IMG/VR virus record: IMGVR_UViG_2740892439_000007
Coordinates: 1-30,004 of that record
Direction: 5' to 3' (one strand)
DNA from: a virus
Taxonomy: Duplodnaviria > Heunggongvirae > Uroviricota > Caudoviricetes
DNA: 30,004 bases
The stretch's first letter is position 1, and every line of letters begins with the position of its first letter. The notes under the pieces were generated by a model that was given only the letters and a program-made list of their open reading frames with translations, was not told the DNA's origin and searched no databases. This document shows positions 4,413 to 22,201 of this stretch, in pieces. A program made the position numbers and the translations under genes.

Positions 4413-5134
4413 ATGAGATTTACTACCTGACGTTACGTGAACGTTATTCACCAAAACCAGCGCCTAAATGCTCTGTTTGTGACGAGGAAATGTCAATACA
4501 GCGCATATCTGGAGCACATGTTGTTTATGCCTGTTCCGGTGAGGGTGATGACGGATATTTTAAGATAGGGCGTACTTTTGCAGACGAACATTATGAAAAA
4601 TCACGCGTAACAGTAGTTGATGATAGTGATCCCGATGTGATTGCACTGCTGGACGAACTGGATAAAAGACAGCAACACATCCGACGTCTTGAGCAGGAGA
4701 ACGTAGAGATGGCCCTAACGCTTGAGAAACTGCGTGTTGAGCTGGAGACCGTTAAACAGCGGGAAAAGGATCTGTTTATGGAAAATGTTCGACTTAAGTC
4801 AGGTATAGCAGGTCTGATACACCTCGGTATTCGATATGCGGATGTCGAAGTCATGAAAATAGCTGGTGATGCCCAGCTTTCTACTCCCTGTACTGACAGC
4901 ATCATAAACAGTATTGCATCAGGCGTTTTCACCAAAGAGGTCAGCATTATGAGAACAGTAGAAGTTCGCGCTGAAGATGTAACCCCAGGTGATGTGGTCA
5001 TAACATCTAAAGGCAAACGATGTGCGGTTAAATCTTTCTGGATGGAAGGTGACAAAGTGACTCTGTTCGGTACGGATGGTTCCGAAACGGATTATGACTA
5101 CGACGAATTACTTGTTGTTGAGAGAGCTATCTAA
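4409..5134 (+). CDS. Hypothetical protein (241 aa) with an N-terminal Cys cluster (CSVC...C) and a predicted coiled coil
   Basis: ORF from GTG overlapping the upstream stop; sequence features only, no family recognised. Confidence 0.6.
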   Translation: MNEIYYLTLRERYSPKPAPKCSVCDEEMSIQRISGAHVVYACSGEGDDGYFKIGRTFADEHYEKSRVTVVDDSDPDVIALLDELDKRQQHIRRLEQENVEMALTLEKLRVELETVKQREKDLFMENVRLKSGIAGLIHLGIRYADVEVMKIAGDAQLSTPCTDSIINSIASGVFTKEVSIMRTVEVRAEDVTPGDVVITSKGKRCAVKSFWMEGDKVTLFGTDGSETDYDYDELLVVERAI

Positions 5135-6188: not shown

Positions 6189-6261
6189 ACTACAGGTGCC
6201 CACCAGCATACAGAAAATGATTGTTTCCACATCAAGGAGATTTTAATGTTTCACTGAAACA

Positions 6262-6516: not shown

Positions 6517-6541
6517 TTTCGGAAAAACATCAGGGAACGGC
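6517..6541. repeat. Iteron-like motifs (ttttcggaaaaacatc aggGAACGGC) related to the arrays at 13548 and 16514
   Basis: Shares the block GAAAAACATC-GGGAA with 16606-16625. Confidence 0.4.
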
Positions 6542-6896: not shown

Positions 6897-6916
6897 TACT
6901 GTATGTGTATACAGTA
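6897..6916. promoter_or_regulatory. LexA (SOS) box TACTGTATGTGTATACAGTA overlapping a TATACT -10
   Basis: Perfect CTGT-N8-ACAG dyad 17 nt upstream of the UmuD'-like start codon. Confidence 0.8.
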
Positions 6917-6932: not shown

Positions 6933-7322
6933 ATGGGCTTCCCTTCTCCTGCGGCGGATTATGCTGAGAGCCGTATTTCTCTTGATCAGCAGATAATTAG
7001 ACATCCTTCAGCGACCTACTTCATGAGGGCAGCTGATAGTCATCATCGTGAGGGAATATTACAGGGTGCATTGCTGGTGGTCGATTCCTCACTTACCCCG
7101 GTTGATGGTTCTCTGCTTGTATGCGCTCTGGATGGGGAATATCGCGTAAAAAGATACCGGAAGTACCCACGTCAGCATCTGGAGGATTTAAGAACCGGTA
7201 AGAAGGAAGCATTGCCAAAGGATGACGATGGATGCACGGGCAGCAATGCCGTGTTTGGTGTGATCACTCACATTATCAACGACGCAAGAAGTGGCGAGTT
7301 TGATGATTGTCCCGTGATGTAG
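6933..7322 (+). CDS. UmuD'-like S24 peptidase-family protein, encoded without the N-terminal cleavable arm (HumD-like)
   Basis: Begins M-GFPSPAADY, i.e. at the equivalent of the UmuD Cys24/Gly25 cleavage site; Ser (ADSH) and Lys (RVKR) of the catalytic dyad are present; no upstream in-frame start is available. Confidence 0.8.
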   Translation: MGFPSPAADYAESRISLDQQIIRHPSATYFMRAADSHHREGILQGALLVVDSSLTPVDGSLLVCALDGEYRVKRYRKYPRQHLEDLRTGKKEALPKDDDGCTGSNAVFGVITHIINDARSGEFDDCPVM

Positions 7323-7359: not shown

Positions 7360-8460
7360 TCACACTGCGCGGAATGCGATTTCGCCAGGTATTACTTCAC
7401 CTTGCCAATACATTTGGGCAGCAACGCGATCTGCGAGGTCACGATAAATAGCCGTAAATTCGCTATCTGGACGACTAATAACGGTTGGTGTTCCGTTATC
7501 CAGATCTTCACGAAGAGAGATATGAAGTGGCATTTGGCCTAACAACTGCGTGTTGTATTTCTCGGCCAGTTTCTGTGCGCCACCGGTGCCAAAAATTGGC
7601 TCGTGATGACCGCAGTTACTGCAAATATGCACACTCATGTTTTCGACGATACCCAGTACCGGCACTTCGACTTTTTCGAACATCACAATGCCTTTCTTCG
7701 CATCGATCAGCGCGATGTCTTGCGGCGTAGTTACCACAACCGCACCAGTTACAGGAATGTTCTGCGCCAGCGTCAACTGAATATCACCAGTGCCCGGCGG
7801 CATATCGAGAACGAGATAGTCCAGATCAGGCCATAGAGTTTCCTGCAACATCTGCATCAGCGCCTTGCTGGCCATCGGTCCACGCCACACCATTGCATTG
7901 TCGTCGGTGACCAGATAACCAATAGAGTTGGTTGCCAGGCCATGAGACATGATAGGTGCCATGTGAGTACCGTCAGGTGAGGTTGGACGTTGGTTTTCCG
8001 CTCCCAGCATGGTTGGAATTGATGGACCATAGATATCGGCATCCAAAATACCAACTTTCGCACCTTCAGCAGCCAACGCCAGTGCCAGGTTCACCGCCGT
8101 GGAGGATTTACCCACGCCGCCCTTGCCTGAGCTGACGGCGATAATGTTCTTAACGCCATTAATGCCTGGTTGGTTTTTGACGCGCTTAAGCGTGGCAATG
8201 TTGTACGACAGCTTCCAGTCAATAGCCTTTGCGCCAGTGATACGGAGCAGATCACCACTACATTGCTCTTTCAGGTCTTCAAAAGGCTTATTCCACACGA
8301 AAGGCATGATTAGTTCGACATGCAGTGTGTCATCCATCAACGCAACATGGTGTAACGCTTTAAGCGTAGTCAGGTTGTGTTTCAGGGTTGGGTGCTGAAA
8401 ATTAGCCAGCGTACCGGCTACCATTGCTCTCAGGGCATCCGGCGATTTGGACTCGCTCAT
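7360..8460 (-). CDS. apbC: Fe-S cluster carrier ATPase ApbC/Mrp
   Basis: 366-aa product with P-loop SSGKGGVGKS and C-terminal CxxC; near-identical to E. coli Mrp as recalled. Confidence 0.95.
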   Translation of the reverse strand: MSESKSPDALRAMVAGTLANFQHPTLKHNLTTLKALHHVALMDDTLHVELIMPFVWNKPFEDLKEQCSGDLLRITGAKAIDWKLSYNIATLKRVKNQPGINGVKNIIAVSSGKGGVGKSSTAVNLALALAAEGAKVGILDADIYGPSIPTMLGAENQRPTSPDGTHMAPIMSHGLATNSIGYLVTDDNAMVWRGPMASKALMQMLQETLWPDLDYLVLDMPPGTGDIQLTLAQNIPVTGAVVVTTPQDIALIDAKKGIVMFEKVEVPVLGIVENMSVHICSNCGHHEPIFGTGGAQKLAEKYNTQLLGQMPLHISLREDLDNGTPTVISRPDSEFTAIYRDLADRVAAQMYWQGEVIPGEIAFRAV

Positions 8461-8617
8461 CCCGTCTCCTTTATTTTAATTTGCGCAATTGTCGCCTTGT
8501 AGTGTACTCCAGCTACGACATTTAATCATTTATGAGAAATGCTGTTATCACATGGCAGACATAAGGCCATTTTGTTACTATCAAGCCCCTTTTCACTACA
8601 AAGAAGTAATGCCTACT

Positions 8618-10651
8618 ATGACCCAAGTCGCGAAGAAAATTCTGGTGACGTGCGCGCTGCCGTACGCTAACGGCTCAATCCACCTCGGCCATATGCTGGA
8701 GCACATCCAGGCTGATGTCTGGGTTCGTTACCAGCGAATGCGCGGCCACGAGGTTAATTTCATCTGTGCCGACGATGCCCACGGTACGCCGATCATGCTG
8801 AAAGCACAGCAGCTTGGTATCACACCGGAGCAGATGATTGGCGAAATGAGTCAGGAACACCAGACTGATTTCGCAGGCTTTAACATCAGCTATGACAACT
8901 ATCACTCGACGCACAGCGAAGAGAACCGTCAGTTGTCTGAGCTTATCTATACTCGCCTGAAAGAGAACGGTTTTATTAAAAACCGCACTATCTCTCAGTT
9001 GTACGACCCGGAAAAAGGCATGTTCCTGCCGGATCGTTTTGTAAAAGGCACCTGCCCGAAATGTAAAGCGCCAGATCAATACGGCGATAACTGTGAAGTC
9101 TGCGGCGCGACCTACAGCCCGACTGAACTGATTGAGCCGAAATCGGTAGTTTCTGGCGCTACGCCGGTAATGCGTGATTCTGAACACTTCTTCTTTGATC
9201 TGCCCTCTTTCAGCGAAATGTTGCAGGCATGGACCCGCAGCGGCGCGTTGCAGGAGCAGGTGGCGAACAAAATGCAGGAATGGTTTGAATCCGGCCTGCA
9301 ACAGTGGGATATCTCCCGCGATGCGCCTTACTTCGGTTTTGAAATTCCGAACGCGCCGGGCAAATATTTCTACGTCTGGCTGGACGCGCCGATTGGCTAC
9401 ATGGGTTCCTTCAAGAATCTGTGCGACAAGCGCGGCGATACCACCAGCTTCGATGAATACTGGAAGAAAGACTCCACCGCCGAGCTGTACCACTTCATCG
9501 GTAAAGATATTGTTTACTTCCACAGCCTGTTCTGGCCTGCCATGCTGGAAGGCAGCAACTTCCGCAAGCCGACCAACCTGTTTGTTCACGGCTATGTGAC
9601 GGTGAACGGCGCGAAGATGTCCAAGTCTCGCGGCACCTTTATTAAAGCCAGCACCTGGCTGAATCATTTTGACGCCGACAGCCTGCGTTACTACTACGCT
9701 GCGAAACTCTCTTCGCGCATTGATGATATCGATCTCAACCTGGAGGATTTCGTTCAGCGCGTGAATGCCGATATCGTGAACAAAGTGGTTAACCTGGCCT
9801 CCCGTAATGCAGGCTTTATCAACAAGCGTTTTGACGGCGTGCTGGCAAGCGAACTGGCTGACCCGCAACTGTACAAAACCTTTACTGATGCCGCTGAAGT
9901 GATTGGCGAAGCATGGGAAAGCCGCGAATTTGGTAAAGCTATCCGTGAAATCATGGCATTGGCTGACCTGGCTAACCGCTATGTCGATGAACAGGCTCCG
10001 TGGGTGGTGGCGAAGCAGGAAGGACGCGATGCCGATCTGCAGGCGATTTGCTCTATGGGCATTAACCTGTTCCGCGTGCTGATGACGTACCTGAAGCCGG
10101 TACTGCCGAAACTGACTGAACGTGCAGAAGCATTCCTGAATACAGAACTGACCTGGGATGGTATCCAGCAACCGCTGCTGGGCCATAAAGTGAATCCGTT
10201 CAAGGCACTGTATAACCGTATCGATATGAAGCAGGTTGAAGCACTGGTGGAAGCATCTAAAGAAGAAGTGAAAGCAGCTGCCACGCCAGTAACTGGCCCG
10301 CTGGCAGATGATCCGATTCAGGAAACCATCACCTTTGATGACTTCGCCAAAGTTGACCTGCGCGTGGCGCTGATTGAAAACGCAGAGTTTGTAGAAGGTT
10401 CTGACAAACTGCTTCGCCTGACGCTGGATCTCGGTGGTGAAAAGCGTAATGTCTTCTCAGGCATCCGTTCCGCTTATCCAGATCCACAGGCACTGATTGG
10501 TCGTCACACCATTATGGTGGCTAACCTGGCACCACGTAAAATGCGCTTCGGTATCTCTGAAGGCATGGTGATGGCTGCTGGCCCTGGCGGGAAAGATATC
10601 TTCCTGTTAAGCCCGGATGTCGGTGCTAAACCTGGCCACCAGGTTAAGTAA
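8618..10651 (+). CDS. metG: Methionine--tRNA ligase
   Basis: [25 protein letters not shown] (HIGH motif), KMSKS, C-terminal tRNA-binding domain; near-identical to E. coli MetG as recalled; the track ORF start at 8489 is an upstream alternative codon. Confidence 0.97.
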
Positions 10652-10697: not shown

Positions 10698-10735
10698 CAT
10701 ATAGACACAACCCCTTCTGACTTTAACAAACCCTA

Positions 10736-10799
10736 AAACAATTTGTTTTCTACCTTTTGTTGATTGAGATAATAAGCCACATAAGAAAACAAATTGTTT
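10736..10799 (+). promoter_or_regulatory. Promoter with two perfect operators (10736-10748 AAACAA-T-TTGTTT; 10787-10799 AAACAA-A-TTGTTT) flanking an extended -10 TGAGATAAT (10765-10773)
   Basis: Operator centres 51 bp apart, the same spacing as at 15412/15463. Confidence 0.65.
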
Positions 10800-10812
10800 C
10801 GGAGTGGTTGAA

Positions 10813-11112
10813 ATGTTGAACATTACCCAAGCCTACCAGGTGGCATTGATCAGTTCATCTCATACATCAGAGGAAGATGCTCGCCGATTCATGATCGCAA
10901 GCAATGAGCTGGATTGGGTTTCACAAATTGACGGCGGTTGTATTGTCCACGCCGGGTTACAGGATGATGTCTGGAAAGAGGACTTGCGTCGATATGGTAT
11001 ATCCGAAGGCGCAATTGCTAACATTCAGAAAGTACTTGATGTAGGCTTTGACTGTGTACATTTTGATTGTGGTGCGCCGATCGTTGAAGGGCTTGAGTGC
11101 TGGTGTTGGTAG
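10813..11112 (+). CDS. Hypothetical protein (about 100 aa)
   Basis: ATG at 10813 with GGAG 8 nt upstream; the track start at 10804 is an alternative codon. Confidence 0.6.
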   Translation: MLNITQAYQVALISSSHTSEEDARRFMIASNELDWVSQIDGGCIVHAGLQDDVWKEDLRRYGISEGAIANIQKVLDVGFDCVHFDCGAPIVEGLECWCW

Positions 11113-11282: not shown

Positions 11283-12482
11283 ATGACTGATACCGCTTTT
11301 TCAAAATCGTTACAAAAAGAAGTCGATCCTGAGCAGTACTTGGCGCTAAAGAATTTAGATGACAGCTCGGTTCATGCTATTGCCCGTGACGATATCATCT
11401 GCCCCATTTGCAAAGTTGGAGGTGGTTCGTTCGTTAGAGCCACTAGGAATGGTGGCTATCACAAGAAGGCGCATTTCAGATTTACCGGTGAAGATGGTCA
11501 AGGCCATCATCCATCATGTGATTTCTATGGAGATAGATTAACATCTGAGGTGAAGCAGCACCTTGTCTCATTCACAAAAGATCGAACAAAGTATTCGCAG
11601 GTAATACGAAAGCTGGTCTGTGCCGGCATACAGGAAGGGATATTTACTCAAGAAAAAATGTGGCAGATGAGGGAATGGTTCTTCAATAAGCGAAAGGATT
11701 CCACATTTGAAATATGGTTAGAAAGCGAGCATTTAGACTGGCTTTATTATATTAGTGGGTTACGTGATGCATATCTAGCATGGACAACTCCTGATATTCT
11801 ACCTTTCGCGCCCATTCAGGTTACTGTCCCTGGTTTTTCTTGGAGGCGTGCGATTGACAAAGAGGTGCTAAGAGTTCACATCAAGACTCTCCAGCAATTG
11901 CGTGAAATTTCAGTCTCACATAGTGACATTGCTGTAATCTTAGAACACATAAACAATAATCGTGACCGCACAATTCTCGATCCATCGCATTTGGAGGACG
12001 AGATAAGTAAGACCTATAAGCTTACTAGTTTTGTGATGGGCAATTACATTGAGTTTCAGACAAAAACGGTTAGCGACAGAGCATACGGGGAAGCTAAGTT
12101 TCTGGCATTTGCAGCACTTTTGTTGTTCGTGTCAGATTGGGACCTCAACATTGCTATTGGTAAGTTTTCTAAGATTGCCAGAGTGAAGGAGGTTGATGAC
12201 ATGCTGGCTGGTAATTTCATTGGTCTTAATCCTTACTTCCGATACGACCTGGCTAATGCAGTGAAGAGATTGCAGGATAACTGGCCGATTGAATACCAAG
12301 AGTTGGAGCATTGGAATGTTGAGAAATCCATGCGTGACGCATATGAAAAGTGGCGTGCGACAGAGCTGAATTCGCTCCACCCCTATTGCCAGACTTGTAT
12401 ATTGCCAAACATGAGAAAGAAGTCGCACAAGACGAGCAAGTCAGGCAGTGGATTAAGAACGGGGATGTTTGATTGTAATTAG
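11283..12482 (+). CDS. Hypothetical protein (about 399 aa) with an N-terminal Cys/His cluster (CPICK ... HHPSCDF)
   Basis: ATG at 11283 has GGAG 6 nt upstream, whereas the track start at 11244 has no RBS; no family recognised. Confidence 0.65.
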   Translation: MTDTAFSKSLQKEVDPEQYLALKNLDDSSVHAIARDDIICPICKVGGGSFVRATRNGGYHKKAHFRFTGEDGQGHHPSCDFYGDRLTSEVKQHLVSFTKDRTKYSQVIRKLVCAGIQEGIFTQEKMWQMREWFFNKRKDSTFEIWLESEHLDWLYYISGLRDAYLAWTTPDILPFAPIQVTVPGFSWRRAIDKEVLRVHIKTLQQLREISVSHSDIAVILEHINNNRDRTILDPSHLEDEISKTYKLTSFVMGNYIEFQTKTVSDRAYGEAKFLAFAALLLFVSDWDLNIAIGKFSKIARVKEVDDMLAGNFIGLNPYFRYDLANAVKRLQDNWPIEYQELEHWNVEKSMRDAYEKWRATELNSLHPYCQTCILPNMRKKSHKTSKSGSGLRTGMFDCN

Positions 12483-12616
12483 CTTAATCAATCAGTTGAT
12501 AATGGCGGTCACAATTTGATTCTTTTCTATAAGAACCCGTTGATCGCCACTACTCCCCTCCCATACCAGCAATCACATCATTAAATATCAATAGGTTAAC
12601 GTTGTTTATACCAATA

Positions 12617-13330
12617 AGAAAACAACTAAATAACAGATCAACGAAACATCAACGCTTTCTCCCGATTTGGTCTAAAAAATTGACGTTATCACACATCACT
12701 TCTTATACCCGTAATTCTACGCAGCAGATAGCGCCACAGCGTCCAAATTTCACCACAAACGACTCAACACACTACCAACAAAAACACACGCTCAAAATCG
12801 CTCCCGTTGCGTTACACAACCATATAAACAACTTATTTTCAGGCATAACAAAACAACTAAATAACACATATGACATTCCCCAAAACAACCAACCTCTTTA
12901 TGGCAGGCTACCGAAAAGACCCACCTCTTCTCCCCAGGCTACCGGACAACCAACCTAACTTTCACAGGCAATCCGAAAACATTCATACGCGCGATACCCA
13001 CGACACGCCATTCCCCAAACAGCGAAGAAACACCAGAATCACTGAAACCCCAACGAAGCCTGTTACCGCAAGGATTCTCTCAATCCCAAAAGACACGAAA
13101 CATAACAATCACGGGAAACGCCATTACCCAATACACGAATAACTACAAAAGCCCTTCACGCACTCCAGACAAACAACTCAAACACAATAACGAAAGCAAT
13201 CGCCCACCTGCCATTACTCCATACACGGAGAAGAACAATCACCAAAACGACGAGAACACCCCATAGAAGAACCACCGCAAAACGAACGAAACCATTTACA
13301 CCGACAGAGAGAACAACACACCCAATTCAC
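12617..13330 (+). other. About 0.7-kb noncoding tract with strong A+C strand bias (roughly 75 percent A+C on the plus strand) and internal repeats
   Basis: Hand counts on two 60-nt lines gave 75 and 77 percent A+C; track ORFs here are low-complexity P/T/N/Q/H-rich translations. Confidence 0.7.
12888..12981 (+). repeat. Three tandem ~30-bp direct repeats (CCACCTCTT...CCAGGCTACCG family)
   Basis: Units at about 12888-12920, 12921-12950, 12951-12981; same family as 15811-15900. Confidence 0.6.
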
Positions 13331-13466
13331 CAACAGAAATAGTCGCCGTATAGAACATTCTGGAAGGAGTGAGCATTAACGCCTATAGAGAGGTTGAGAC
13401 AGATAAACACGAAGAAAACACAACATGTATAGCGAAGAAGCCAGGTATGTATAAGTGGGGAGGGAA

Positions 13467-13488
13467 GGAGGGGTGTCGCCTCCTTTTT
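13467..13488 (+). terminator. Hairpin plus T5 terminator candidate at the end of the AC-rich/purine-rich noncoding tract
   Basis: ggagg ggtgtcg cctcc followed by TTTTT. Confidence 0.45.
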
Positions 13489-13547
13489 CGTATTTATTCA
13501 ACTCCTGATTTTATCCCCCGTAACACCCCTACGGTCAGCCTTCGGTC

Positions 13548-13700
13548 CATACAGGGAAAAGGCTGCATCCCGCTACAGAAACGGCTGGGTTGCCTTCGGG
13601 GAACGGCTGGAGGTTTTCAGGGAAACGGTCGAGTTGCCTGTGTGGATTTCGGGAAAAGGCTCGATGCCGGTTCAGGAACGGTGGCGTACCGGTATAGCGA
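13548..13700 (+). repeat. Iteron array: six direct repeats with core GG(G)AAA(C/A)GG at about 22-bp periodicity
   Basis: Cores at about 13564, 13587, 13608, 13630, 13661, 13685. Confidence 0.65.
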
Positions 13701-13998
13701 GAGGGAGAGTTGCGGCTACCCACCTGTAATGTGCGGGAAGAAGAGAGGCGCTCACGTGCAGGCGGACTAACTTACCGTTGGACTCCCTCTGAATGCCCAA
13801 CTACAGCGTAATTGTGCCAGAGAGTCAGCGGGTCACAATCGATTTCAGTAGGTTTTCGGGGAGAGGATTATTCTGCCCACCAGCCACTTTCGGCCACCAA
13901 ATCAGAATAATGTAAAAAGTGTACTCGGTACTGAACCTGAAAACTCACTGCCAAAACCACATTCACCGGAATAAAATCCTTTTTCGCCTGTGCGTTAT

Positions 13999-14033
13999 TG
14001 CGATAATAACACCAACAAGAAAACATGTTGTTT
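13999..14033 (+). promoter_or_regulatory. Extended -10 promoter TGCGATAAT (13999-14007) plus operator AAACAT-G-TTGTTT (14021-14033)
   Basis: ttgcgataataacaccaacaagaaaaca is identical to 15440-15467. Confidence 0.65.
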
Positions 14034-14045
14034 AAGGATTGATTT

Positions 14046-14375
14046 ATGTTTGCACATATCGACATCAACCAAATCAAGAAATTAACTCAAAAAGAGTTTG
14101 ATCAGTTTTATGAGTTAGAAGGTTGGTCTTCCACTCTGATCAATTCGCGGTGGGTGCTTGAGCTGATGACTCGTGATGACGCACCTGCTTTGATGATTTG
14201 CGACATGGGTGAAGATGCTGACTTTATGGATATGAGCGAATTTTGTGTGGACACATACAACCGCAGCCAGAAGTACTACTTCACATGCGATAGCGAAAAT
14301 GACGTGATTTCTAAGGTCTATCTTCACCTCGTCCAGCATTGGGACGTTCAGGAGTTTCTTGAGGTATTCGCGTAA
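14046..14375 (+). CDS. Hypothetical acidic protein (109 aa)
   Basis: ATG 13 nt after the operator; Asp/Glu-rich. Confidence 0.65.
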   Translation: MFAHIDINQIKKLTQKEFDQFYELEGWSSTLINSRWVLELMTRDDAPALMICDMGEDADFMDMSEFCVDTYNRSQKYYFTCDSENDVISKVYLHLVQHWDVQEFLEVFA

Positions 14376-14481
14376 TCCCAACCAAAGCCAGCATTGCTGG
14401 CTTAATTTCTCTATAGCCGCAGGGAAGAACCTACATATCGCTCATGCACCTGATCAATATGCTTTGTAGCCGTTTTCTTAC

Positions 14482-14517
14482 TGGTATCATTTACGCCATT
14501 GAGAAAACAAGTTGTTT
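14482..14517 (+). promoter_or_regulatory. Extended -10 TGGTATCAT (14482-14490) plus perfect operator AAACAA-G-TTGTTT (14505-14517)
   Basis: Same architecture as the other cassettes. Confidence 0.6.
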
Positions 14518-14528
14518 ACGGAGTTGTG

Positions 14529-14840
14529 ATGAAAAAATCATTGGTTCTTGGTCTGGACAAAGACCAGAAGAGAAAAGAGAAGCCTGCGCTGGTTGCTCAA
14601 TTAACTTTGCTGGACATCGTTGCCAATGGAACCTCTATTCGTCTGTTCCGTGAAACAGCGGTATCTTTCGATAAAAACACCTTTACTCGTTATGTAATGA
14701 ATGTTCGTCGCCAGCGTGGAAAAGGCTGGGTGGCATTTCAAAGAATGTGGCCGGAACATCAGCTCGAACTGGCTTTGATGGAAGTTAACCGCGTGGCCCA
14801 GCAAGAAATTCAGAGAGCATCAGTGATGGCAATAGCCTGA
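14529..14840 (+). CDS. Hypothetical protein (103 aa)
   Basis: ATG at 14529 with GGAG 5 nt upstream; the track start at 14499 lies inside the operator. Confidence 0.6.
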   Translation: MKKSLVLGLDKDQKRKEKPALVAQLTLLDIVANGTSIRLFRETAVSFDKNTFTRYVMNVRRQRGKGWVAFQRMWPEHQLELALMEVNRVAQQEIQRASVMAIA

Positions 14841-14874
14841 TAATGTGCAAGTGGTAATTAGTCGACAGTACGAC

Positions 14875-14903
14875 AGCCCCGCCATCCTTACGGGGCTTTT
14901 TTG
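14875..14903 (+). terminator. Rho-independent terminator (gccccg ... cggggc + TTTTTT)
   Basis: GC stem plus T6 after the stop of CDS 14529-14840. Confidence 0.75.
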
Positions 14904-14960
14904 TATTGTAAGTACTTACCTATGGCGATAGTATTACGACGCATTTACATGGAGGTAAAA

Positions 14961-15368
14961 ATGAGTTTGACCAAAGAAGATTTAGTATTTGACCTTTACT
15001 ACGCATCCAGCACTGACGAAGAAGGCAATAAACTGGCCCAGCTGACCGTTCAGTTCCGTGATGCATCGGCTGTTCCGCATGTGACTACCCAGCTGGCCCG
15101 CACAACTCTTAAGCGAGATCGCTCGAAGGTTTATGCCGTCGGCGAGCAATCCGTGAAAAATGGTTCAGACACTCTGCTGGCCGCCATTGAAGCCTATTAT
15201 CGAACAGACCCGAAGACCATTTTCGAAAACCTGATGGCCCAGGTTCAGGATATGATCGAGGGCAACCTTGGCGCCAACAATACCTGGGTTGGTTCTTACG
15301 GCATCACCATTGTGTCTGGCGGCTCTCTGGAAGAGTATCTGCCTGAGTCCGTCTACAACGTCCAGTAA
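14961..15368 (+). CDS. Hypothetical protein (135 aa)
   Basis: ATG at 14961 with GGAGG 5 nt upstream; the track N-terminal extension begins in the terminator T-tract; a 12-bp palindrome GTAAGTACTTAC sits upstream at 14909-14920. Confidence 0.65.
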   Translation: MSLTKEDLVFDLYYASSTDEEGNKLAQLTVQFRDASAVPHVTTQLARTTLKRDRSKVYAVGEQSVKNGSDTLLAAIEAYYRTDPKTIFENLMAQVQDMIEGNLGANNTWVGSYGITIVSGGSLEEYLPESVYNVQ

Positions 15369-15377
15369 ACCAGCCAA

Positions 15378-15400
15378 TGGCGCGTAACCCGCGCCATTTT
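15378..15400 (+). terminator. Rho-independent terminator (tggcgcg taacc cgcgcca + TTTT)
   Basis: 7-bp GC stem plus T4 after the stop at 15368. Confidence 0.75.
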
Positions 15401-15411
15401 CCCCAACCCGT

Positions 15412-15475
15412 AAACAAGTTGTTTTATGCCTATCCTACATTGCGATAATAACACCAACAAGAAAACAAGTTATTA
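15412..15475 (+). promoter_or_regulatory. Promoter with operators at 15412-15424 (perfect) and 15463-15475 (degenerate) flanking extended -10 TGCGATAAT (15441-15449)
   Basis: Operator centres 51 bp apart, as at 10736/10787. Confidence 0.65.
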
Positions 15476-15494
15476 ACGCAGTGAGGAAACGCAC

Positions 15495-15776
15495 ATGACC
15501 GATTTCACCATCTCCCCGAAAGAAGAAAACGTATGGCTGGAATCCTGGCTTGACCTGTCGCCGGCCGAGCAGAAAGAAATGGATCACGTCGAACCGGACG
15601 AACAAACCAGCTCCCGCTTCTTCCATTATCAGGATAGCGTTTATGACATTGCCGATTTCATGCGCGATGACCGCTTCCCGGAATGGCACGCCGGCTATCC
15701 ACTGAATGCCTTCGCTATGCTGATGATCCGCGTGACAGATTCAGGCGACGCCATCGACATCGGATTACTTCATTGA
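15495..15776 (+). CDS. Hypothetical small acidic protein (93 aa)
   Basis: ATG with gagga RBS; Asp/Glu-rich. Confidence 0.65.
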   Translation: MTDFTISPKEENVWLESWLDLSPAEQKEMDHVEPDEQTSSRFFHYQDSVYDIADFMRDDRFPEWHAGYPLNAFAMLMIRVTDSGDAIDIGLLH

Positions 15777-15810
15777 GAGGGGAGGGCCACCGATGCTGGT
15801 GGCCATCAAT

Positions 15811-15900
15811 TACCACCTGCTTTCCCGCAGGCTAAAAACACCCACCTCTTACCGCCAGGCTACCGAAGCACCCACCTGTTCCCGTCCGGCTACCGCAACT
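15811..15900 (+). repeat. Three exact-period 30-bp tandem direct repeats (cCCACCTnnTTnCCnnCaGGCTAcc...)
   Basis: Units at 15811-15840, 15841-15870, 15871-15900; related to 12888-12981. Confidence 0.65.
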
Positions 15901-15928
15901 TTCCACTTTGACGCCTTATTCGTACAAC

Positions 15929-15961
15929 GATAATTAATACCAACAAGAAAACAATTTGTTA
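15929..15961 (+). promoter_or_regulatory. -10 GATAAT (15929-15934) plus operator AAACAA-T-TTGTTA (15949-15961)
   Basis: Same cassette family. Confidence 0.55.
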
Positions 15962-15981
15962 TTTACGATAAGGAATTAATC

Positions 15982-16464
15982 ATGAATTTTATCGCTACTG
16001 TAAACGCACCCGCACATGGCAATATCGCTGTAACGTTCTCTGACATTGAAAAACGAGTACTTGGTGCATGGCGCGACAATGAGACGGTAGAACTGTCAGC
16101 ACAAGAAAAATGCATTATTGCACGCGACATCATTGGCAATCGTCGTTACTCGCGGGTATTTGAGAAAGCGTATGTGGTAAATTCTGGATTCGGAACGTTC
16201 GTCTTTCCGGTGCGCTCCGGGCGATTCTGCCAGTCCAAGCTGATTGAGTTCGCTACGCAGATTTCTGTCTGGATTAAAACTCAATCGTCGTTCAAATTTT
16301 CCGACGATGAAGCAGTATCGCAGGGGATGCGAATCGCCAACAATGCGATTAAATGCAAAAACATTACGTATACCGCTGGCGTTGACACATGGAAACTGTT
16401 TTGCGCTAACTTTATGCTGAATGTATACGCAAGCAACCGCATCCACATCCTTGATGGCGTGTAA
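15982..16464 (+). CDS. Hypothetical protein (160 aa)
   Basis: ATG 21 nt after the operator; terminator follows. Confidence 0.65.
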   Translation: MNFIATVNAPAHGNIAVTFSDIEKRVLGAWRDNETVELSAQEKCIIARDIIGNRRYSRVFEKAYVVNSGFGTFVFPVRSGRFCQSKLIEFATQISVWIKTQSSFKFSDDEAVSQGMRIANNAIKCKNITYTAGVDTWKLFCANFMLNVYASNRIHILDGV

Positions 16465-16471
16465 CTGAGAA

Positions 16472-16496
16472 GAGGGCCAGAAACGGCCCTTTCTCT
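16472..16496 (+). terminator. Terminator candidate (gggcc agaaac ggccc + TTTCTCT)
   Basis: Hairpin 8 nt after the stop of CDS 15982-16464. Confidence 0.55.
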
Positions 16497-16513
16497 ATAG
16501 CCACCAGCTGCCG

Positions 16514-16629
16514 CAGGGAAATTTTCAGAAACGGCGAGGAACGTATTCATGAGCCGACGGGAAACGGCCAGGATTTTTTCGGGAAACGGCTGCATTCGCC
16601 TTTATGTAGAAAAACATCGGGAAGCTGGT
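16514..16629 (+). repeat. Second iteron array (GGGAAACGGC-type, about five units, two of them exactly 22 bp apart at 16559 and 16581)
   Basis: Same core as the 13548-13700 array. Confidence 0.6.
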
Positions 16630-16717
16630 GGAATCCAACCAGCGGTTGTCGGACAGGTGAGCGGGGAAAATCATGATGACTTTCGTCGCCTGAGACATCC
16701 AGATTTCTTTCGTAGCG

Positions 16718-16735: not shown

Positions 16736-16878
16736 AGTGGTGTGATTATGTGAAAAATCACGCGCACATAATACGCGAGCGGATACGGAACAAAACAAAA
16801 TGCCGATCCGCGCCGACAAATAAACGCGGATCATAAAGCAAGACTAAAAGCCAATGATTAACCATACTCTATAGCGCA

Positions 16879-17085
16879 ATATAACGCGTTTTAAGCGCGT
16901 TAATGTGTTAAGTAATGGGTATGTACTGGTAAGGATATAAAAGCGCGTCTATGGCGTTATTTTGGCGCTTATTTTTATGTTGTTGGAGTGAGTTAAAGAC
17001 AATAAAAAACGCGCTAATGATGGCGCGTTATGGTGGGAGTATTGGAAACGAAAAAAGCGCCCATAGTGGGCGCTCGATTTTATTT
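16879..17085. repeat. Array of four related GC-core hairpins, each preceded by an A-run (about 16879, 16936, 17002, 17057)
   Basis: Inverted repeats taacgcg/cgcgtta, aacgcgc/gcgcgtt and gcgccca/tgggcgc are exact; the second unit is imperfect; the last is followed by a T-rich tract. Confidence 0.5.
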
Positions 17086-17150
17086 GTGTAAACTGATTTT
17101 AAATCCCATTTCTACAAACGCTTTTAACATTAAAAATATATCAGCGTCGT

Positions 17151-17309
17151 TCACGTCTGCTTTTTTCGCTCCTGGTCGCTCAATAAGTCAATTTTGCGCG
17201 TCGTTTCATCTATAAGCTCGACTGAGCGCCCAGCGTAACCAGCGATCCCAGCGATGCGATTAACAAAATATTCATTGCGCACGTTAACGCCAGCGATAAG
17301 AATAAACAT
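17151..17309 (-). CDS. Small protein candidate (52 aa, hydrophobic N-terminus MFILIAGV, charged C-terminus)
   Basis: ATG with AAGGAG 7 nt upstream; bracketed by two identical hairpins (gcgcccatagtgggcgc at 17057 and 17327); the track's longer N-terminus overlaps the upstream terminator. Confidence 0.3.
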   Translation of the reverse strand: MFILIAGVNVRNEYFVNRIAGIAGYAGRSVELIDETTRKIDLLSDQERKKQT

Positions 17310-17322
17310 GATTAAGCTCCTT

Positions 17323-17343
17323 AAAAGCGCCCATAGTGGGCGC
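17323..17343 (-). terminator. Rho-independent terminator for CDS 17357-18016 (gcgccca tag tgggcgc plus T-run on the minus strand)
   Basis: Hairpin 14 nt after the stop, followed by TTTT in minus-strand sense. Confidence 0.7.
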
Positions 17344-17356
17344 AAGATTCCATTAA

Positions 17357-18016
17357 TTACGCTTTGAAAGCATCAGCCAGATAGTTATAGAAATCATTTT
17401 TAATAAAGCGATATTGCTGCGTACCAGCTTTTGCGCTTCCCATTCCTTTGACTTTCTCAACAAGTCCAAGACGTTCGCAAAGATTGATCAACTGGTTGGC
17501 TTGAGTATAGCCAGCGTCCAATTTAATTTCGCACGCTTTTTTAGCTTCATTCATTAAATCGAAAACAGCGCCATTGGTGAACGTGTCGATCTCGTCGTTA
17601 ATCATATCGATTAAAGCGAATACACGAGATCCTGACATATCAGCGACGGAATAAACACATTTACCAGCTTTAATGGATTTAACCAGATAAACCAGTTTTT
17701 CCAGTGAATAACTATTAGTCATAGCATCACGGAAAAATACTTCTGGCGCTTGTTTACTTGCTTTAATCGCATAGTAGAAAACAGAGCATAATTTTTCGTC
17801 TTCTACTGCGTTTACGACGTTGTTGATGAAGTAAGCAAGTTTAGTGGTCGCAGCTTGCATATTTGCTTTGTCTGCTTTAGTGTGCGTACCATTTTTATAA
17901 TGTTCGTTATATGTTTGAGTTGCCAGATCTGCTTTTTCGCGCAGCTCGTCGGATACAATAGATGCAGCTTCAATGATGGACTTTTTAGAAATGATAATGT
18001 TAGCCATGATGGACAT
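17357..18016 (-). CDS. Hypothetical protein (219 aa), visibly AT-rich coding sequence
   Basis: Long ORF with its own terminator; AT-richness is a visual impression, not a count. Confidence 0.7.
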   Translation of the reverse strand: MSIMANIIISKKSIIEAASIVSDELREKADLATQTYNEHYKNGTHTKADKANMQAATTKLAYFINNVVNAVEDEKLCSVFYYAIKASKQAPEVFFRDAMTNSYSLEKLVYLVKSIKAGKCVYSVADMSGSRVFALIDMINDEIDTFTNGAVFDLMNEAKKACEIKLDAGYTQANQLINLCERLGLVEKVKGMGSAKAGTQQYRFIKNDFYNYLADAFKA

Positions 18017-18303
18017 CCTTACGAAAAATTAAAATGAATTTATTTTTTACTGTCGTTAGCCAGCTCGCTTTCGACGAGTTCAATTATCGATACGTGAAAA
18101 AGGATTGCAAGTATTTTTTTTAAATTTTTTTGCAGGGGTGAAAGTCCTAGAAATAAAAGCGAGATCGTCGAAGGTGTTCCCTAAATAAATAATCAATTCG
18201 GACTTTTAACCTTATATATTTATACAGAGTGGCATTGAATGAGTTTTAAATGAATGGCATGTAAAATAATAACCGGGCTTAGCCGGTTATTACCCTTATA
18301 GAT

Positions 18304-18828
18304 TTAAAATGGAAGGATTCGTTCAACCCAATCGAAGAAAACAAGTATTTTTCTGCCGTCTTCTAACTTAAGAGTGACCTGGCAAGCATCAACGCCTCTT
18401 GACACCCCTTCAATTTCACGACCGTCTGCCATGTAGACCCTTATAGATTGGTCGTTTTGATAAGCCTTGCGACATATCGCAAAAAAGTCACGGCGTGATG
18501 GCTGATTGTCAACATAGTCTGGATGTATTGTTAGCCTACCTTTGAACTCGCGAGCAATGCCATCGATTACACCTGATTCAATTGTGCTAATGCGCTCAAG
18601 TGGGAGTCTTATACGATTTTCTTTATCATATGGAAGCGGGCATAAATCTAGCTTATTGCGGGAAGGCATTGTCCCCTGAACGTACATGCAAAACACCTGA
18701 CCGTCTTCAAGCGTGACTCTTACAGGAATGTTGTTCTTCCGCCAGAACATAAGTATGTTTTCAGCATGTTCGTAGTCTCGCGGCCAGACTTCAGCCGGTA
18801 TGCCGTAGGTGATGTCCGATGTTCTCAT
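18304..18828 (-). CDS. Tandem Rof (YaeO)-like domain protein (174 aa)
   Basis: Two internal repeats each resembling E. coli Rof as recalled (DY...LEDG ... ExRxRLxxIS/T): VRVTLEDGQVF...ENRIRLPLERISTI and IRVYMADGREI...VTLKLEDGRKILVFFDWVERI. Confidence 0.55.
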   Translation of the reverse strand: MRTSDITYGIPAEVWPRDYEHAENILMFWRKNNIPVRVTLEDGQVFCMYVQGTMPSRNKLDLCPLPYDKENRIRLPLERISTIESGVIDGIAREFKGRLTIHPDYVDNQPSRRDFFAICRKAYQNDQSIRVYMADGREIEGVSRGVDACQVTLKLEDGRKILVFFDWVERILPF

Positions 18829-19418
18829 TCTGATACTCTTAGAGGTGTTTTCAGCAACCCAAATTTAAATTCTTTGTTACCAACGACAAAGAAGGGAACC
18901 TCAACATAGATTTTTTTATCGACGGATTTAGAGTTCGCTGTTTTCTGTATGTCACGAACGATACGTTTTGAGGCATTTTCATCGATAAACAATACCTTTC
19001 CACTTGTATTCCCTTCAGCCTTGGCGTAAGTAACGATAGGCTCTTCATCGCCAACCCTAATGTTTACTTGGCAACCTGTTGTAGCCATTTCATCACAGTA
19101 AAGTGTGCCGTCTTGAACTTCCAAAACAATTCCAGATGGCTTCATGGCTTCGTCAGAGCTTACATTAACGTTTTCTGGTACAGCGGTCCCGTTAATTTGC
19201 AACCGTAATCTTTCTTTTCCTGCATTAAGTATTGTTTCTTCTGCGTTATCTGAGAATCTGAACCAGACTGGTTGAATCAGACCTCGTGATTCGTATTTTA
19301 GTACGTCTTCAGAAGTATACATGCTGTACGTTTTTTGCATGTCGGAGACGATATCTGACAACGCATTTGCGGAAAATGACGAGAGGTATATACAAGCAAG
19401 AAGTAACGAACGTTTCAT
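18825..19418 (-). CDS. Secreted or periplasmic protein with N-terminal signal peptide (197 aa)
   Basis: MKRSLLLACIYLSSFSANA-LSD has a classic n-h-c signal peptide with AxA site; 4-bp ATGA overlap with the downstream Rof-like gene. Confidence 0.7.
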   Translation of the reverse strand: MKRSLLLACIYLSSFSANALSDIVSDMQKTYSMYTSEDVLKYESRGLIQPVWFRFSDNAEETILNAGKERLRLQINGTAVPENVNVSSDEAMKPSGIVLEVQDGTLYCDEMATTGCQVNIRVGDEEPIVTYAKAEGNTSGKVLFIDENASKRIVRDIQKTANSKSVDKKIYVEVPFFVVGNKEFKFGLLKTPLRVSE

Positions 19419-19510
19419 TTTTATACAGCGATTATTGCAAAGTAGAATTATAAATATCCAATAGTCTCAAACGATAAGTTTTCAACTGTAAATAGCAGAC
19501 GTGTTTCTCT

Positions 19511-19543
19511 AAAAGCTGTGCGGCAAAGGCGTTGTTGCCGCAC
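19511..19543 (-). terminator. Rho-independent terminator for CDS 19599-19877 (gtgcggcaa ... ttgccgcac plus T-run on the minus strand)
   Basis: 9-bp stem; AAAA on the plus strand at 19511-19514 gives TTTT after the hairpin in minus-strand sense. Confidence 0.7.
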
Positions 19544-19598
19544 TCTGTCTATTAGCTCTTCAAGTCTGGCAATTCTGAAATTGACTAAGAATCCAATA

Positions 19599-19877
19599 TT
19601 ACGGCAGTTTGCTTAGAATTTGCTCTAAATCTTCCTTTGTCATATTAGAGTTCTCATAGATGCGCATGATTTTCTCACGAGCCTTAGCAGAGACTCCAAC
19701 GGCAGATGAAACTTTGTCAAATTCAGCCATTGTCATCGCTTCCAGAATGGTATTGATAACTTCAGCCTTAGACATTTTGATGTTTTTTTCTTTTAGTTTC
19801 ATTTGAAACTTTCCAAGTTTGTCATTGGCCTTATCGGACAATGCCACCTGACAATAAGTTGTTTTCTTTTCGCTCAT
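19599..19877 (-). CDS. Hypothetical small protein (92 aa)
   Basis: Only 2 nt separate its start from the helicase stop codon. Confidence 0.6.
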   Translation of the reverse strand: MSEKKTTYCQVALSDKANDKLGKFQMKLKEKNIKMSKAEVINTILEAMTMAEFDKVSSAVGVSAKAREKIMRIYENSNMTKEDLEQILSKLP

Positions 19878-19879
19878 AA

Positions 19880-21438
19880 CTAATCTCGTTTCAGAACTCC
19901 AAAATCGAATGCGCCATCAATAGGCAATACACCTTCTGCAAAGCCAGGTGTGGTGTCGATGATGTGTTTTCGCTCATAAGAGTGAGACAACAGGTATTTG
20001 TTGCTAATGTCAATGAAATCAGTGATAAAACACACGTTTGCCTGATTCTTCTTGGCTCGTAAGCCACGACCGACACGCTGCCTCATTTCAACTTCTGCTT
20101 TCCCACCACCAGCCAGAATGACCGCACCAACGCTTGGCACATCAACACCGACATCCAGAATAGTCGAGCCTATTAAAACATCTATTTCGCCAGACGCTAA
20201 ACTGTTCAGCTTTGCTTGCCTTGTCGCCTGGTTTGATTCCCCATAGATGAAGTCAACTCTAAGGCCGGACTCCTTCATCATCTCCATCAGGATTTGCCCG
20301 TGGCGTTTAAGACGAACCAGAGTCATGCAATTGAGAGAATGTTGCTTATAGAGCAATGCTTCGCGCACAATGGCCTCGTTACGTCCCAAATTATACACGA
20401 TCCCCAACTGATAAGCCTTTTGGTAGGCTGTGCTCATACCTACTCTAAAATTGAGGTGTTTGTTGGCAAGTTCGGCTTGATTCTGGCCTCGTCTGGCTTG
20501 TAGGCAACTTTATGATAAAGGAAGTATGGTTTTGCCAGAATGCCTCTATCAATCAGGTACTTTTCCGTGACTTTTATTTCAATTCGCCCGGCCACTGCCA
20601 TCAGGCGCATGTTGGCTTCCGTCGAATCCTTCATGAACGGCGTGGCTGTAAGCGCCAGACGATAGTCTGCGTTCACACATAATCTGGCGATGTCATAGAA
20701 ATTAGAGCCTGAAGACTCATGCGCCTCTTCCAGAATAAGAAGAGAGACACTTGAAAGGAAGCGTTTCACCAACTCCCGACGTTTGAGGTGGTAGCTTTTC
20801 TTATCTGGTGTTGCATCGCGTGGTGGTTCTTCGAGGAAACTTGCAAGAGTTTGAACTGTAGCGACGTTGATATGTCGTGATACCTGGAACTCACCCGAGC
20901 CAATTACTCCAACCTTTTGGTCCTTTAACCACGGTTCGCCATTTTCGGCGCGGTAGTCGATGGATCTCTGGAAGTTTTCGGCCATTTGAAACATCAGAAC
21001 AGAGCGGGTTGTTAAAAATAATGTCATTCGACCGATACGTGCAGCTGCTTTGCAGGCAACGTTAGATTTCCCGCCACCAGTAGCGATCTGCGCAATCATC
21101 ATTCCCTCTCGAACCAGTGTTTCTACTGTCTGATCTTGGTACGCATAATCAGGGTTGTATGGAAATGGGTTAACCGCCGGATTTGGTTTACCCAGCGCCG
21201 GGGCTTTGTCTTTGCGGATATGAACACATTTGATGCCCGCCTTGTTCAAATTAGCCGCCACGGGCTTGGCAAAGCCAGCAGGGAACGAGTTTTTGCTCCA
21301 GTTGAACATTGTGCTTGTGCCCTTCCAGTCGCCAGCCTCGACTTCGTAGCTCAACATTTGCTGCACCAGTTGCTTTACCTTGTCATCTGCGCCAGAAATA
21401 AGCGCATTTACTGCGTTAGATACAATCCGAACAGTCAT
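19880..21438 (-). pseudogene. SF2 DExH-type helicase interrupted by a -1 frameshift (N-terminal part 20440-21438, C-terminal part 19880-20437)
   Basis: Motifs I (ATGGGKS), II (LILEEAHE) and III (LTATP) lie in the upstream ORF and motif VI (QRVGRGLR) in the downstream ORF; the frames change at a T4 run (plus-strand AAAA near 20447). Confidence 0.75.
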
Positions 21439-21520
21439 AAACCTCTTTCCTTAGTGCCTTTTGTATGTTATTTGGCTATTATAATAAGTAAGTGATTACT
21501 TAGTGGATTGTAGCAATAAA

Positions 21521-22201
21521 ATGGACGTAAAAATCACGATTTTGCAGGTTGATGTTGCCAACCTTCGCCCGAATACCTGGAACACCAATTCGGTTGGTGC
21601 GCAGAATTTCGAAAAACTGAAAGGTTCTATCGAAAAATTGGGCTTTTTTAAGCCAATTTTGGCTCGTGAGCTTGAAGATGGATTTTTTGAAATCCTCGGC
21701 GGCGAACATCGCTGGCGTGCTGCTATTGAGCAAGGAATTTCAACGGTTCCTGTGCTTTCTGTGGGCAAAATTAGCGATGTCGTGGCAAAACAGATGTCAC
21801 TGGTGGACAACGAGCGATACGGTGAAGACGACCAAATCGCATTGCAACGCTTCATTGAAGAAATTCAGTCAGAACTTGACTATCAACTGTCTGAAATCGC
21901 CCCGTATGACGACGAAATCTCGATGGTTTTAGCAAAAGAGGCGGCAATCGACCTTGAAGCACTGGAGGCGTTGTCTCGTGGCGGTGACGAGCCTGTCGAT
22001 ACCGACAAACGAGAGAAAACCGAACGTGTCGGTGCGGAACATCAGACCATGCGCTTCAAAGTAACCTTCGATGCGTCAGATCGCGTTGCAGAAACCATAA
22101 AAAACATCATCAAAGACCAGGCAATTAATACTGGCAATGAAATGGAAAACGCTGGTGAGGCTCTGGTGTGGCTGGTCGACTACTACAAGGAGCGTATGTA
22201 A
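21521..22201 (+). CDS. ParB-like nuclease (ParB/Srx N-terminal) domain protein 1
   Basis: FFEILGGEHRWRAA box; acidic C-terminal half; the track start at 21503 is GTG, first ATG is at 21521. Confidence 0.7.
   Translation: MDVKITILQVDVANLRPNTWNTNSVGAQNFEKLKGSIEKLGFFKPILARELEDGFFEILGGEHRWRAAIEQGISTVPVLSVGKISDVVAKQMSLVDNERYGEDDQIALQRFIEEIQSELDYQLSEIAPYDDEISMVLAKEAAIDLEALEALSRGGDEPVDTDKREKTERVGAEHQTMRFKVTFDASDRVAETIKNIIKDQAINTGNEMENAGEALVWLVDYYKERM

Follow-up and report, generated by a model that had tools for sequence, protein, structure and literature searches.

Two conserved, helically phased direct-repeat arrays in SSU5/pHCM2-like phage-plasmids as putative protein-bound sites distinct from the plasmid origin

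Two arrays of GGGAAACGGC-type direct repeats, here called B and C, are real and conserved across the SSU5/pHCM2 phage-plasmid family, and in both of them an asymmetric motif of about 14-18 bp (TTTCGGGAAACGGCTGG) is repeated in a single orientation and in phase with the DNA helix. We assume, with a probability of about 0.8, that they are protein-bound DNA arrays other than the plasmid origin and, judging from the sequence, they form a genuine cis element of these phage-plasmids, one that is strongly conserved and had not been annotated before. The window, meaning the whole stretch of 30,004 nucleotides that was analysed (positions 1 to 30,004 of IMG/VR record IMGVR_UViG_2740892439_000007), was identified by megablast as an SSU5/pHCM2-like phage-plasmid; its identity with Escherichia phage Cyrano and PhiR41_1 is about 95%, and more distant matches are to Klebsiella, Salmonella (pHCM2, SSU5), Enterobacter and Citrobacter elements. 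Over 601 bp surrounding array B, the identity is 99.5% with the E. coli plasmid pECAZ155_2, a complete 113-kb relative which was reconstructed whole and used as reference for genome-wide scans.

Array B (13548-13688, plus strand) consists of six iteron-like units with the consensus yTTTCrGGGAAAMGGCTGG in the 22-nt frames 13548-13569, 13570-13591, 13592-13613, 13614-13635, 13645-13666 and 13667-13688. The plus-strand core G[GA]AA[AC]GG is found at 13556, 13578, 13600, 13622, 13653 and 13675, which corresponds to spacings of 22, 22, 22, 31 and 22 bp. These six cores lie within 120 bp, and the biggest cluster on either strand comprised at most three across 300 shuffles of the window; the pattern GGRAAMGGY gave 8 matches with 1.6 expected. 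The six repeats about 22 bp apart that the initial annotation had reported at 13548-13700 are thus confirmed. Using a 22-nt weight matrix made from the units of eight diverse relatives, the units of array B score 14.2-23.0 bits. Array C (16520-16596, plus strand) contains three strong units (16520-16541, 16553-16574 and 16575-16596), whose cores at 16528, 16561 and 16583 are spaced by 33 and 22 bp and score 18.9, 20.7 and 22.4 bits. A fourth plus-strand core in this region, at 16480, is formed by the loop and the 3' arm of a terminator hairpin and stays at background level with 9.6 bits, and the motif copies near 16517 and 16620 are degenerate. From the earlier count of about five units at 16514-16629, the array itself and its 22-bp pair therefore remain, but the number has to be reduced to three strong units, the rest being background or degenerate.

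The two related units that had also been suggested at 6517-6541 (locus A) were not recovered, as there is only a single match (core 6534) with a background-level score of 10.1 bits and the partner CGGAAAAACA does not match the motif. About 20 background sites in the 113-kb relative score like locus A and the 16480 copy, and array-like conservation was not found at 6517-6541, so that locus A was discarded as an array. The sites of pECAZ155_2 with at least 14 bits are solely those of arrays B and C and one intragenic site between them (window position 14719), all on one strand and inside one 3.1-kb segment. In the window, the isolated strong copy CCAGCGTGGAAAAGGCTGGGTG (14711-14732, plus strand, 17.7 bits) is located between the arrays inside the small gene 14499-14840, and four relatives (L001-L004) show core matches at the equivalent place; as this copy lies in coding sequence, its conservation may reflect the protein. 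The scores of arrays B and C are above those of the background sites, which argues that both arrays are real.

Further evidence comes from the conservation of the arrays among relatives, which included Salmonella Typhi pHCM2, plasmids of Klebsiella, Enterobacter and Citrobacter, contigs of Kluyvera and Buttiauxella and 76 further IMG/VR loci retrieved via the neighbouring gene for a 160-aa protein (p160). Both arrays are kept with their orientation and spacing in about 90 elements from Escherichia, Salmonella, Klebsiella, Enterobacter, Citrobacter, Kluyvera and Buttiauxella, with spacings of 22, 22 and 22 bp, plus 31 and 22 bp where present, in array B and of 33/34 and 22 bp in array C. Motif sites on the strand of the p160 gene outnumber those on the opposite strand by 635 to 11, and most of the 11 originate from loci stored in reverse. 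Array C was found in every relative examined, and its unit TTTTCGGGAAACGGC is the best-conserved site family-wide and nearly invariant in six clades; the most persistent motif unit among the relatives is TTTTCGGGAAACGGCCAG. In the alignments the invariant columns fall on the motif cores and the spacers drift, which is reflected by majority-base fractions of 0.85 in cores versus 0.73 in spacers for array B (p=5e-6) and of 0.97 versus 0.81 for array C (p=4e-4). About 10 bp are conserved per 22-bp unit, fewer than in classical iterons. Close relatives (L001, L036) differ through clean deletions of 22 or 44 bp, hence of one or two units, as known from iteron arrays. The recurrence of the repeats in essentially all relatives also speaks against the objection, raised together with the original proposal, that they might be absent from related elements.

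The motif is still present in relatives in which p219, the protein encoded next to array C, is only 52-63% identical: four units per array, spaced by 10-12 and 24-26 bp, are found in L211 and two or three in L212, and in L213 the arrays are decayed to one good unit at each locus. Array B together with an adjacent A+C-rich tract is absent from some lineages (L208 and others), and this loss in combination with the decay in L213 indicates that the arrays are not strictly essential. The distance between array B and array C ranges from 1.5 to 4.5 kb among relatives.

In window orientation, the gene order around the arrays is as follows. The plus strand contains accessory and early genes, among them an apbC-metG pair of host origin; small genes form a block at 14046-16464, and a short minus-strand block (16860-21438) contains small ORFs, p219, an FljA-like gene, p197, p92 and a DEAD/DEAH helicase, which is named UvsW in the Cyrano record. 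The late operon starts at 21503 and encodes two ParB_N-domain proteins, an ABC-type ATPase, terS, terL and the portal. The element additionally encodes RNase HI, a DnaB-like helicase, primase and DnaE, and its dnaB-like/primase/dnaE replication gene module is positioned about 45 kb from the arrays. In the window, frameshifts split the helicase (19880-21438), ABC-ATPase (22866-23530), terL (25522-26777) and portal (26804-28377) genes into two ORFs each, unlike the intact copies of close relatives, which suggests either indel errors in the assembly or an element in decay. The divergent apbC(mrp)-metG pair (7360-10651) is arranged as in the E. coli chromosome and is apparently a host fragment captured by the element; the apbC homologue of Cyrano is reported to be expressed during lysogeny (PMC9928086). 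A perfect LexA (SOS) box, TACTGTATGTGTATACAGTA, is located at 6897-6916 directly upstream of a gene for an UmuD-like S24 peptidase (6933-7322).

To judge whether the arrays act as DNA or as RNA, the spacings are informative. Across the relatives, 140 of 161 distinct adjacent spacings deviate by no more than 2 bp from a multiple of 10.5 bp, and 96 of the 161 pairs are exactly 22 bp apart, with the restriction that the pairs are not independent. Spacings of nearly integral helical turns are expected for binding to the same face of B-DNA and are not required by RNA binding, and together with the single direction of the units they bear out the same-face periodicity described in the initial annotation. 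On the RNA side, RNAalifold detected no covariation in array B across 13 diverse regions (covariation term +0.24), the folding energy of the array could not be distinguished from shuffled sequences on either strand (z = -0.70 and +0.53), Rfam gave zero matches at the gathering threshold and none of relevance at E up to 5, and ARAGORN gave none. A structured RNA, a sponge RNA of the CsrB/Rsm type and a tRNA were rejected on these grounds. From the phased spacings, in combination with the missing RNA structure and covariation, double-stranded DNA is the most probable form in which the arrays act. A coding repeat within the ORF 13369-13770 was rejected as well, because 22 is not a multiple of 3 and unit deletions break this ORF in relatives; PGAP annotates no gene at array B and the arrays are intergenic.

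A special case of the RNA reading is that the transcribed arrays provide linear binding sites, in the manner of a sponge or of a regulatory leader, to an RNA-binding protein such as the FljA-like one. A full-length FljA-like gene (Flag1_repress, Pfam E=5e-81; 18304-18828, minus strand) is located 1.7 kb from the arrays, and every copy of the motif lies on the sense strand of the flanking transcription. The namesake in Salmonella, FljA, binds the leader of the fliC mRNA; hosts of the genus Klebsiella lack flagella, which counts against such an RNA site. It is in line with an RNA site that FljA blocks the translation of fliC mRNA (PMC2652032) and that the array C unit TGAGCCGACGGGAAACGGCC (16550-16572) shares the 12 consecutive bases TGAGCCGACGGG, then GAAAC, with the E. 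coli fliC leader, where the matching 5' untranslated sequence is TGAGCCGACGGGTGGAAACCC (L204, 246-266). However, this 12-nt match is limited to the E. coli clade, was noticed post hoc and may be due to chance. L213 is the sole lineage without the FljA-like gene and has decayed arrays, and more distant lineages keep both; on the other hand, single perfect sites persist without the gene, and the FljA-like alleles are 26-100% identical whereas the motif is constant. Near-identical backbones carry divergent alleles (59-100% identity, some 75-79%), which suggests diversifying selection or cassette exchange. Furthermore, a hairpin terminator precedes each array, conserved structure is missing and the spacings track the helical repeat of DNA, and we therefore regard an RNA-level role as improbable. 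The FljA-like gene is conserved even in elements of the non-flagellated Klebsiella, and its product has a weak Hfq-like match (E=0.0012).

As 22-bp phased direct repeats in a phage-plasmid are reminiscent of initiator iterons, the initial annotation had considered a plasmid origin. In pECAZ155_2 the arrays and the RepB-family initiator gene repA (92992-94206) are separated by about 33 kb. A DnaA box and five repeats containing GATC precede repA, and at least 14 copies of an unrelated iteron, TATGCTRYCAGCGGT, surround the gene on either side, which is the oriR-repA-incA layout of P1/RepFIB-like replicons. Copies of GGGAAACGG were not found at this origin. Since the RepA origin lies elsewhere and has its own repeat, the arrays are not RepA iterons, and it is extremely unlikely that they represent the iterons of the plasmid-prophage origin or an incA-type copy-control locus. 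The genes adjoining the arrays contain no Rep domain and no recognisable initiator, and a convincing DnaA box or a long DNA-unwinding element was not found beside either array: the AT-rich patch next to array B comprises about 30 bp (13489-13516), and a DnaA-like 9-mer next to an array has two mismatches and is not conserved in other clades. In the 113-kb relative, the cumulative skews of GC and AT are monotonic and uninformative. As the arrays are not the known replication origin of the plasmid, they mark a second DNA site, which is probably protein-bound.

A role in partition had been proposed because of the two ParB-like proteins (21503-22201 and 22168-22869). Both match only the N-terminal domain of ParB (ParB_N), score 43 bits against a cut-off of 58 for TIGR00180 (NCBIfam ParB) and are aligned by PADLOC to the N-terminal part of phage methyltransferases, which does not support this proposal. 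A canonical type Ia ParB/parS system was rejected for the same reason, and also because the array motif is asymmetric. A second possibility is that the arrays are the partition site of a ParA-like system, whose operon is located at 12345-13013 of pECAZ155_2, outside the window, and encodes a 222-aa ParA and a 117-aa partner. Type Ib/II centromeres are arrays of direct repeats, sometimes two of them flanking the operon as in pB171 parC1/parC2. No repeats were seen beside the ParA-like operon, where a type Ib/II centromere would be expected, and a scan of the 113-kb genome for other strong arrays yielded only the RepA iterons besides B and C; insulation from transcription would suit such a site as well. 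Against this, the arrays are about 45 kb away from parA, known small centromere-binding proteins use repeats of 4-12 bp and not a 22-bp phasing, and a palindrome upstream of parA with 18 dispersed copies is an equally good candidate for centromere or operator. In addition, L213 with its decayed arrays is still met as 110-kb contigs in 18 samples. Therefore, we consider a centromere unlikely.

Binding of the small terminase had been put forward too, and periodic repeats can indeed wrap a TerS ring. The terminase and portal of the element are of the headful type (Terminase_6N, SPP1_portal), and the R sites of lambda cosB contain GGAAACG. However, pac sites are normally located in or beside terS, and here the arrays lie 8-11 kb upstream of the terS candidate (24890-25522), there are two arrays and not one, and neither a Nu1-like nor any other recognisable domain was detected in the TerS candidate. 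A search of the literature for the physical genome ends and origins of SSU5-like phages found no published data, nor did we find a paper that combines SSU5 or pHCM2 with iterons. A function as pac site is thus very unlikely, and the ParB-like proteins and TerS are the least likely binders of the arrays.

The immediate surroundings of the arrays are conserved as well. Array B closes a 1.56-kb non-coding region (12483-14045), which contains an A+C-rich, G/T-poor tract of about 900 nt (12525-13424, plus strand; A 39%, C 30%, G 13%, T 17%) with 78% column identity over the E. coli, Salmonella, Klebsiella and Enterobacter elements. The tract includes a 31-nt unit in three copies (12880-12971), GCCATTACYC..ACACGGAGAAGAAC in three to four copies and ATAAGAAAACAACTAAATAACA in two copies, and six or seven out of ten or eleven indels are frameshifting. 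It opens with a promoter/leader module common to the neighbouring genes and is probably an untranslated transcript terminating at a hairpin at 13462; this RNA would be unstructured and C-rich and is possibly a target of Rho or Hfq or prone to R-loop formation. The terminator-like hairpin (13462-13489, plus strand) is located about 60 bp upstream of array B, is followed by the AT-rich patch and then by the invariant CCCCCGTAAC, and is the only helix with compensatory changes in the alignment of 13 sequences (pairs 25/47, 35/42 and 36/41). Tract and array B travel together: both are kept, at a distance of 0.9 kb from p160, in L080 and L084 and both are lost in L208. The minimal conserved module consists of the tract, array B, p160 and array C.

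The p160 gene (phrog_1641; 15982-16464, plus strand) is the sole gene that is always present between the arrays. No fold match was found for its product despite a confident structure model, and its fold appears to be novel. The gene ends 8 bp before its terminator hairpin (16472-16495, plus strand), which consists of GGGCC-AGAAAC-GGCCC followed by TTTCTCT, lies directly upstream of array C and has compensatory changes to GGGGC...GCCCC in relatives. An inverted pair, CCACCAGC ... GCTGGTGG, flanks array C (16501-16508 and 16624-16631), and its upstream member is conserved across clades. The 11-mer TGCCCACCAGC, which contains the reverse complement of Chi, occurs in two non-coding regions (6197-6207 and 13874-13884), and a consistent pattern of Chi sites next to the arrays (16501, 16624 and 13877) was not found. 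Between array C and the p219 operon, GC-rich hairpins resembling terminators are clustered on the minus strand (16760-17340), and GCGCCCACTATGGGCGC is present twice among them (17055-17075 and about 17319-17335).

Each array begins a few tens of bases past a hairpin in a long non-coding gap. Array C is located between convergent transcription units in the window, and array B likewise in pHCM2 and Citrobacter. This arrangement, in which two arrays of the same orientation just behind terminators bracket a hypervariable cassette (1.5-4.5 kb) of small genes, each with its own promoter, would also fit a purely architectural or regulatory function: a phage protein, p219 or another one, could coat the arrays and silence the variable cassette by acting as roadblock or insulator or by looping, without any role in replication. 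The promoter of p219 is separate and lacks the global operator described below, which is compatible with this idea. On the other side, the arrays overlap no promoter and keep a distance of at least 300 bp from the nearest one, bacteria offer no established precedent for insulator arrays of this type, and the promoters of the family already possess another, highly enriched operator. We consider an exclusively architectural role only slightly less probable than the replication role proposed below.

This other operator is part of a shared promoter module, in which a GATAAT -10 element is followed by the palindrome AAACAA-N(1-2)-TTGTTT, usually 20-60 bp upstream of start codons. Twelve copies are present in the window with 0.2 expected (249, 963, 3871, 10736, 10787, 12826, 14021, 14505, 15412, 15949, 24812 and 24837), and the 18 copies in pECAZ155_2 include sites upstream of the parA-like, dnaB-like and terS genes. 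By its distribution the palindrome is evidently the general operator of the family and distinct from the arrays; it resembles an operator for a global repressor of the P1-C1 style, or else a dispersed centromere like that of N15.

Returning to the protein-bound arrays, we assume that several copies of one sequence-specific protein would line up on them along a single face of the helix. The best candidate for this protein would be p219 (phrog_1513; 17357-18016, minus strand), which is family-specific and combines a helical bundle at its N-terminus with a winged helix at its C-terminus; the recognition helix is invariant, and the p219 gene always adjoins array C and has its own sigma-70 promoter (about 18095-18125). 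Comparison of p219 with PDB sequences and BFVD found nothing past a generic winged helix. The FljA-like protein is the weaker alternative candidate.

Concerning the function of such a complex, the order array B - p160 - array C would copy the plan 'iterons, rep gene, control iterons' of the P1, F and RepFIB replicons. The locus could accordingly be a second, phage-specific replication locus, either a lytic-cycle origin or a control site, which might be switched on when the A+C-rich tract is transcribed, under operator control, up to array B. Our reason for this reading is that the array-gene-array plan mimics iteron replicons and that the family has no known lytic origin; we put it forward tentatively, as the most likely single function although with the odds against it. 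A more specific version is speculative and has little probability: tract, hairpin, AT patch and both arrays would form an undescribed lytic origin specific for SSU5/pHCM2-like elements, transcription-activated or primed by an R-loop, which would be organised by p219 and possibly p160 and in which RNase HI and the UvsW-like helicase would process the hybrid.

Phage-plasmids of the SSU5/pHCM2 type carry resistance genes and are found widely among clinical Escherichia, Salmonella (including Typhi), Klebsiella and Enterobacter. The only mapped cis-acting site in the family is the RepA replicon typed as IncFIB, and no lytic origin, centromere or pac site has been mapped. The arrays, the A+C-rich tract and the winged-helix gene now provide a concrete target of 3-4 kb, which could help to explain how plasmid replication gives way to lytic replication in these elements or how an accessory cassette is insulated. 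If the arrays are merely regulator sites, the result would be ordinary, yet it annotates more than 2 kb of conserved 'empty' DNA.

A comparison with known systems shows partial similarities in each case. In type III partition (TubR-tubC) the repeats of tubC are 12 bp long, unlike the arrays described here; a TubZ-like GTPase is missing, and the match of p219 is confined to the generic winged-helix fold. P4 ori/crr and pB171 parC1/parC2 share with arrays B and C the presence of two separated arrays of one short motif that act or could act together, but counterparts of the P4 alpha primase-helicase and of the pB171 ParB were not detected beside the arrays, and motif length and spacing differ.

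A scan of IMG/VR for three motif units at 22-bp phase returned SSU5-like contigs and unrelated 22-bp arrays, the clearest of which (in the uncultured lambdoid phages L131, L181 and L142) are located inside replication-initiator genes for proteins of 330-374 aa and are followed by GATC repeats. In detail, L131 (3160-3270), L181 (about 10730-10870) and L142 (about 4880-4990) contain five 22-bp iterons, AATGGRAACGGC-N6-GCCG, with an internal palindrome and then ACAGATCA repeats. These lambdoid origins have the same 22-bp phase with four to five units and share the GGAAACGGC core, with the restriction that they were found via the motif search itself. In contrast to the intergenic arrays B and C, their units are full-length palindromic 22-mers inside the initiator gene. 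A homologue of this initiator was not found in the SSU5-like genome, where the weak tblastn matches are the arrays themselves. A lambdoid-type origin was thus rejected for arrays B and C, as an O-like homologue is absent and the arrays are intergenic; despite the common core, the lambdoid in-gene arrays are an unrelated system, and the three examples illustrate what 22-bp arrays of this motif class usually are in phages.

A further comparison is with theta iteron replicons such as P1 oriR-repA-incA, F ori2-repE-incC and RepFIB. The differences are that a Rep_3/RepB-type initiator between or beside the arrays and a convincing DnaA box are missing, so that a cognate initiator gene does not accompany the repeats, that conservation within each unit is limited to about 10 of the 22 bp, and that a complete P1-like replicon with other iterons is located elsewhere in the element. 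An R-loop-primed lytic origin, as considered above, would combine features of iteron origins with RNA priming of the T4/ColE1 type. In common with theta iteron replicons, the arrays consist of tandem direct repeats in the 17-22 bp range, four to six in one orientation at a phase of about 22 bp, with copy number varying by whole units and an AT-rich patch next to one array, and they follow the same two-array plan, here 1.5-4.5 kb apart around a small conserved gene.
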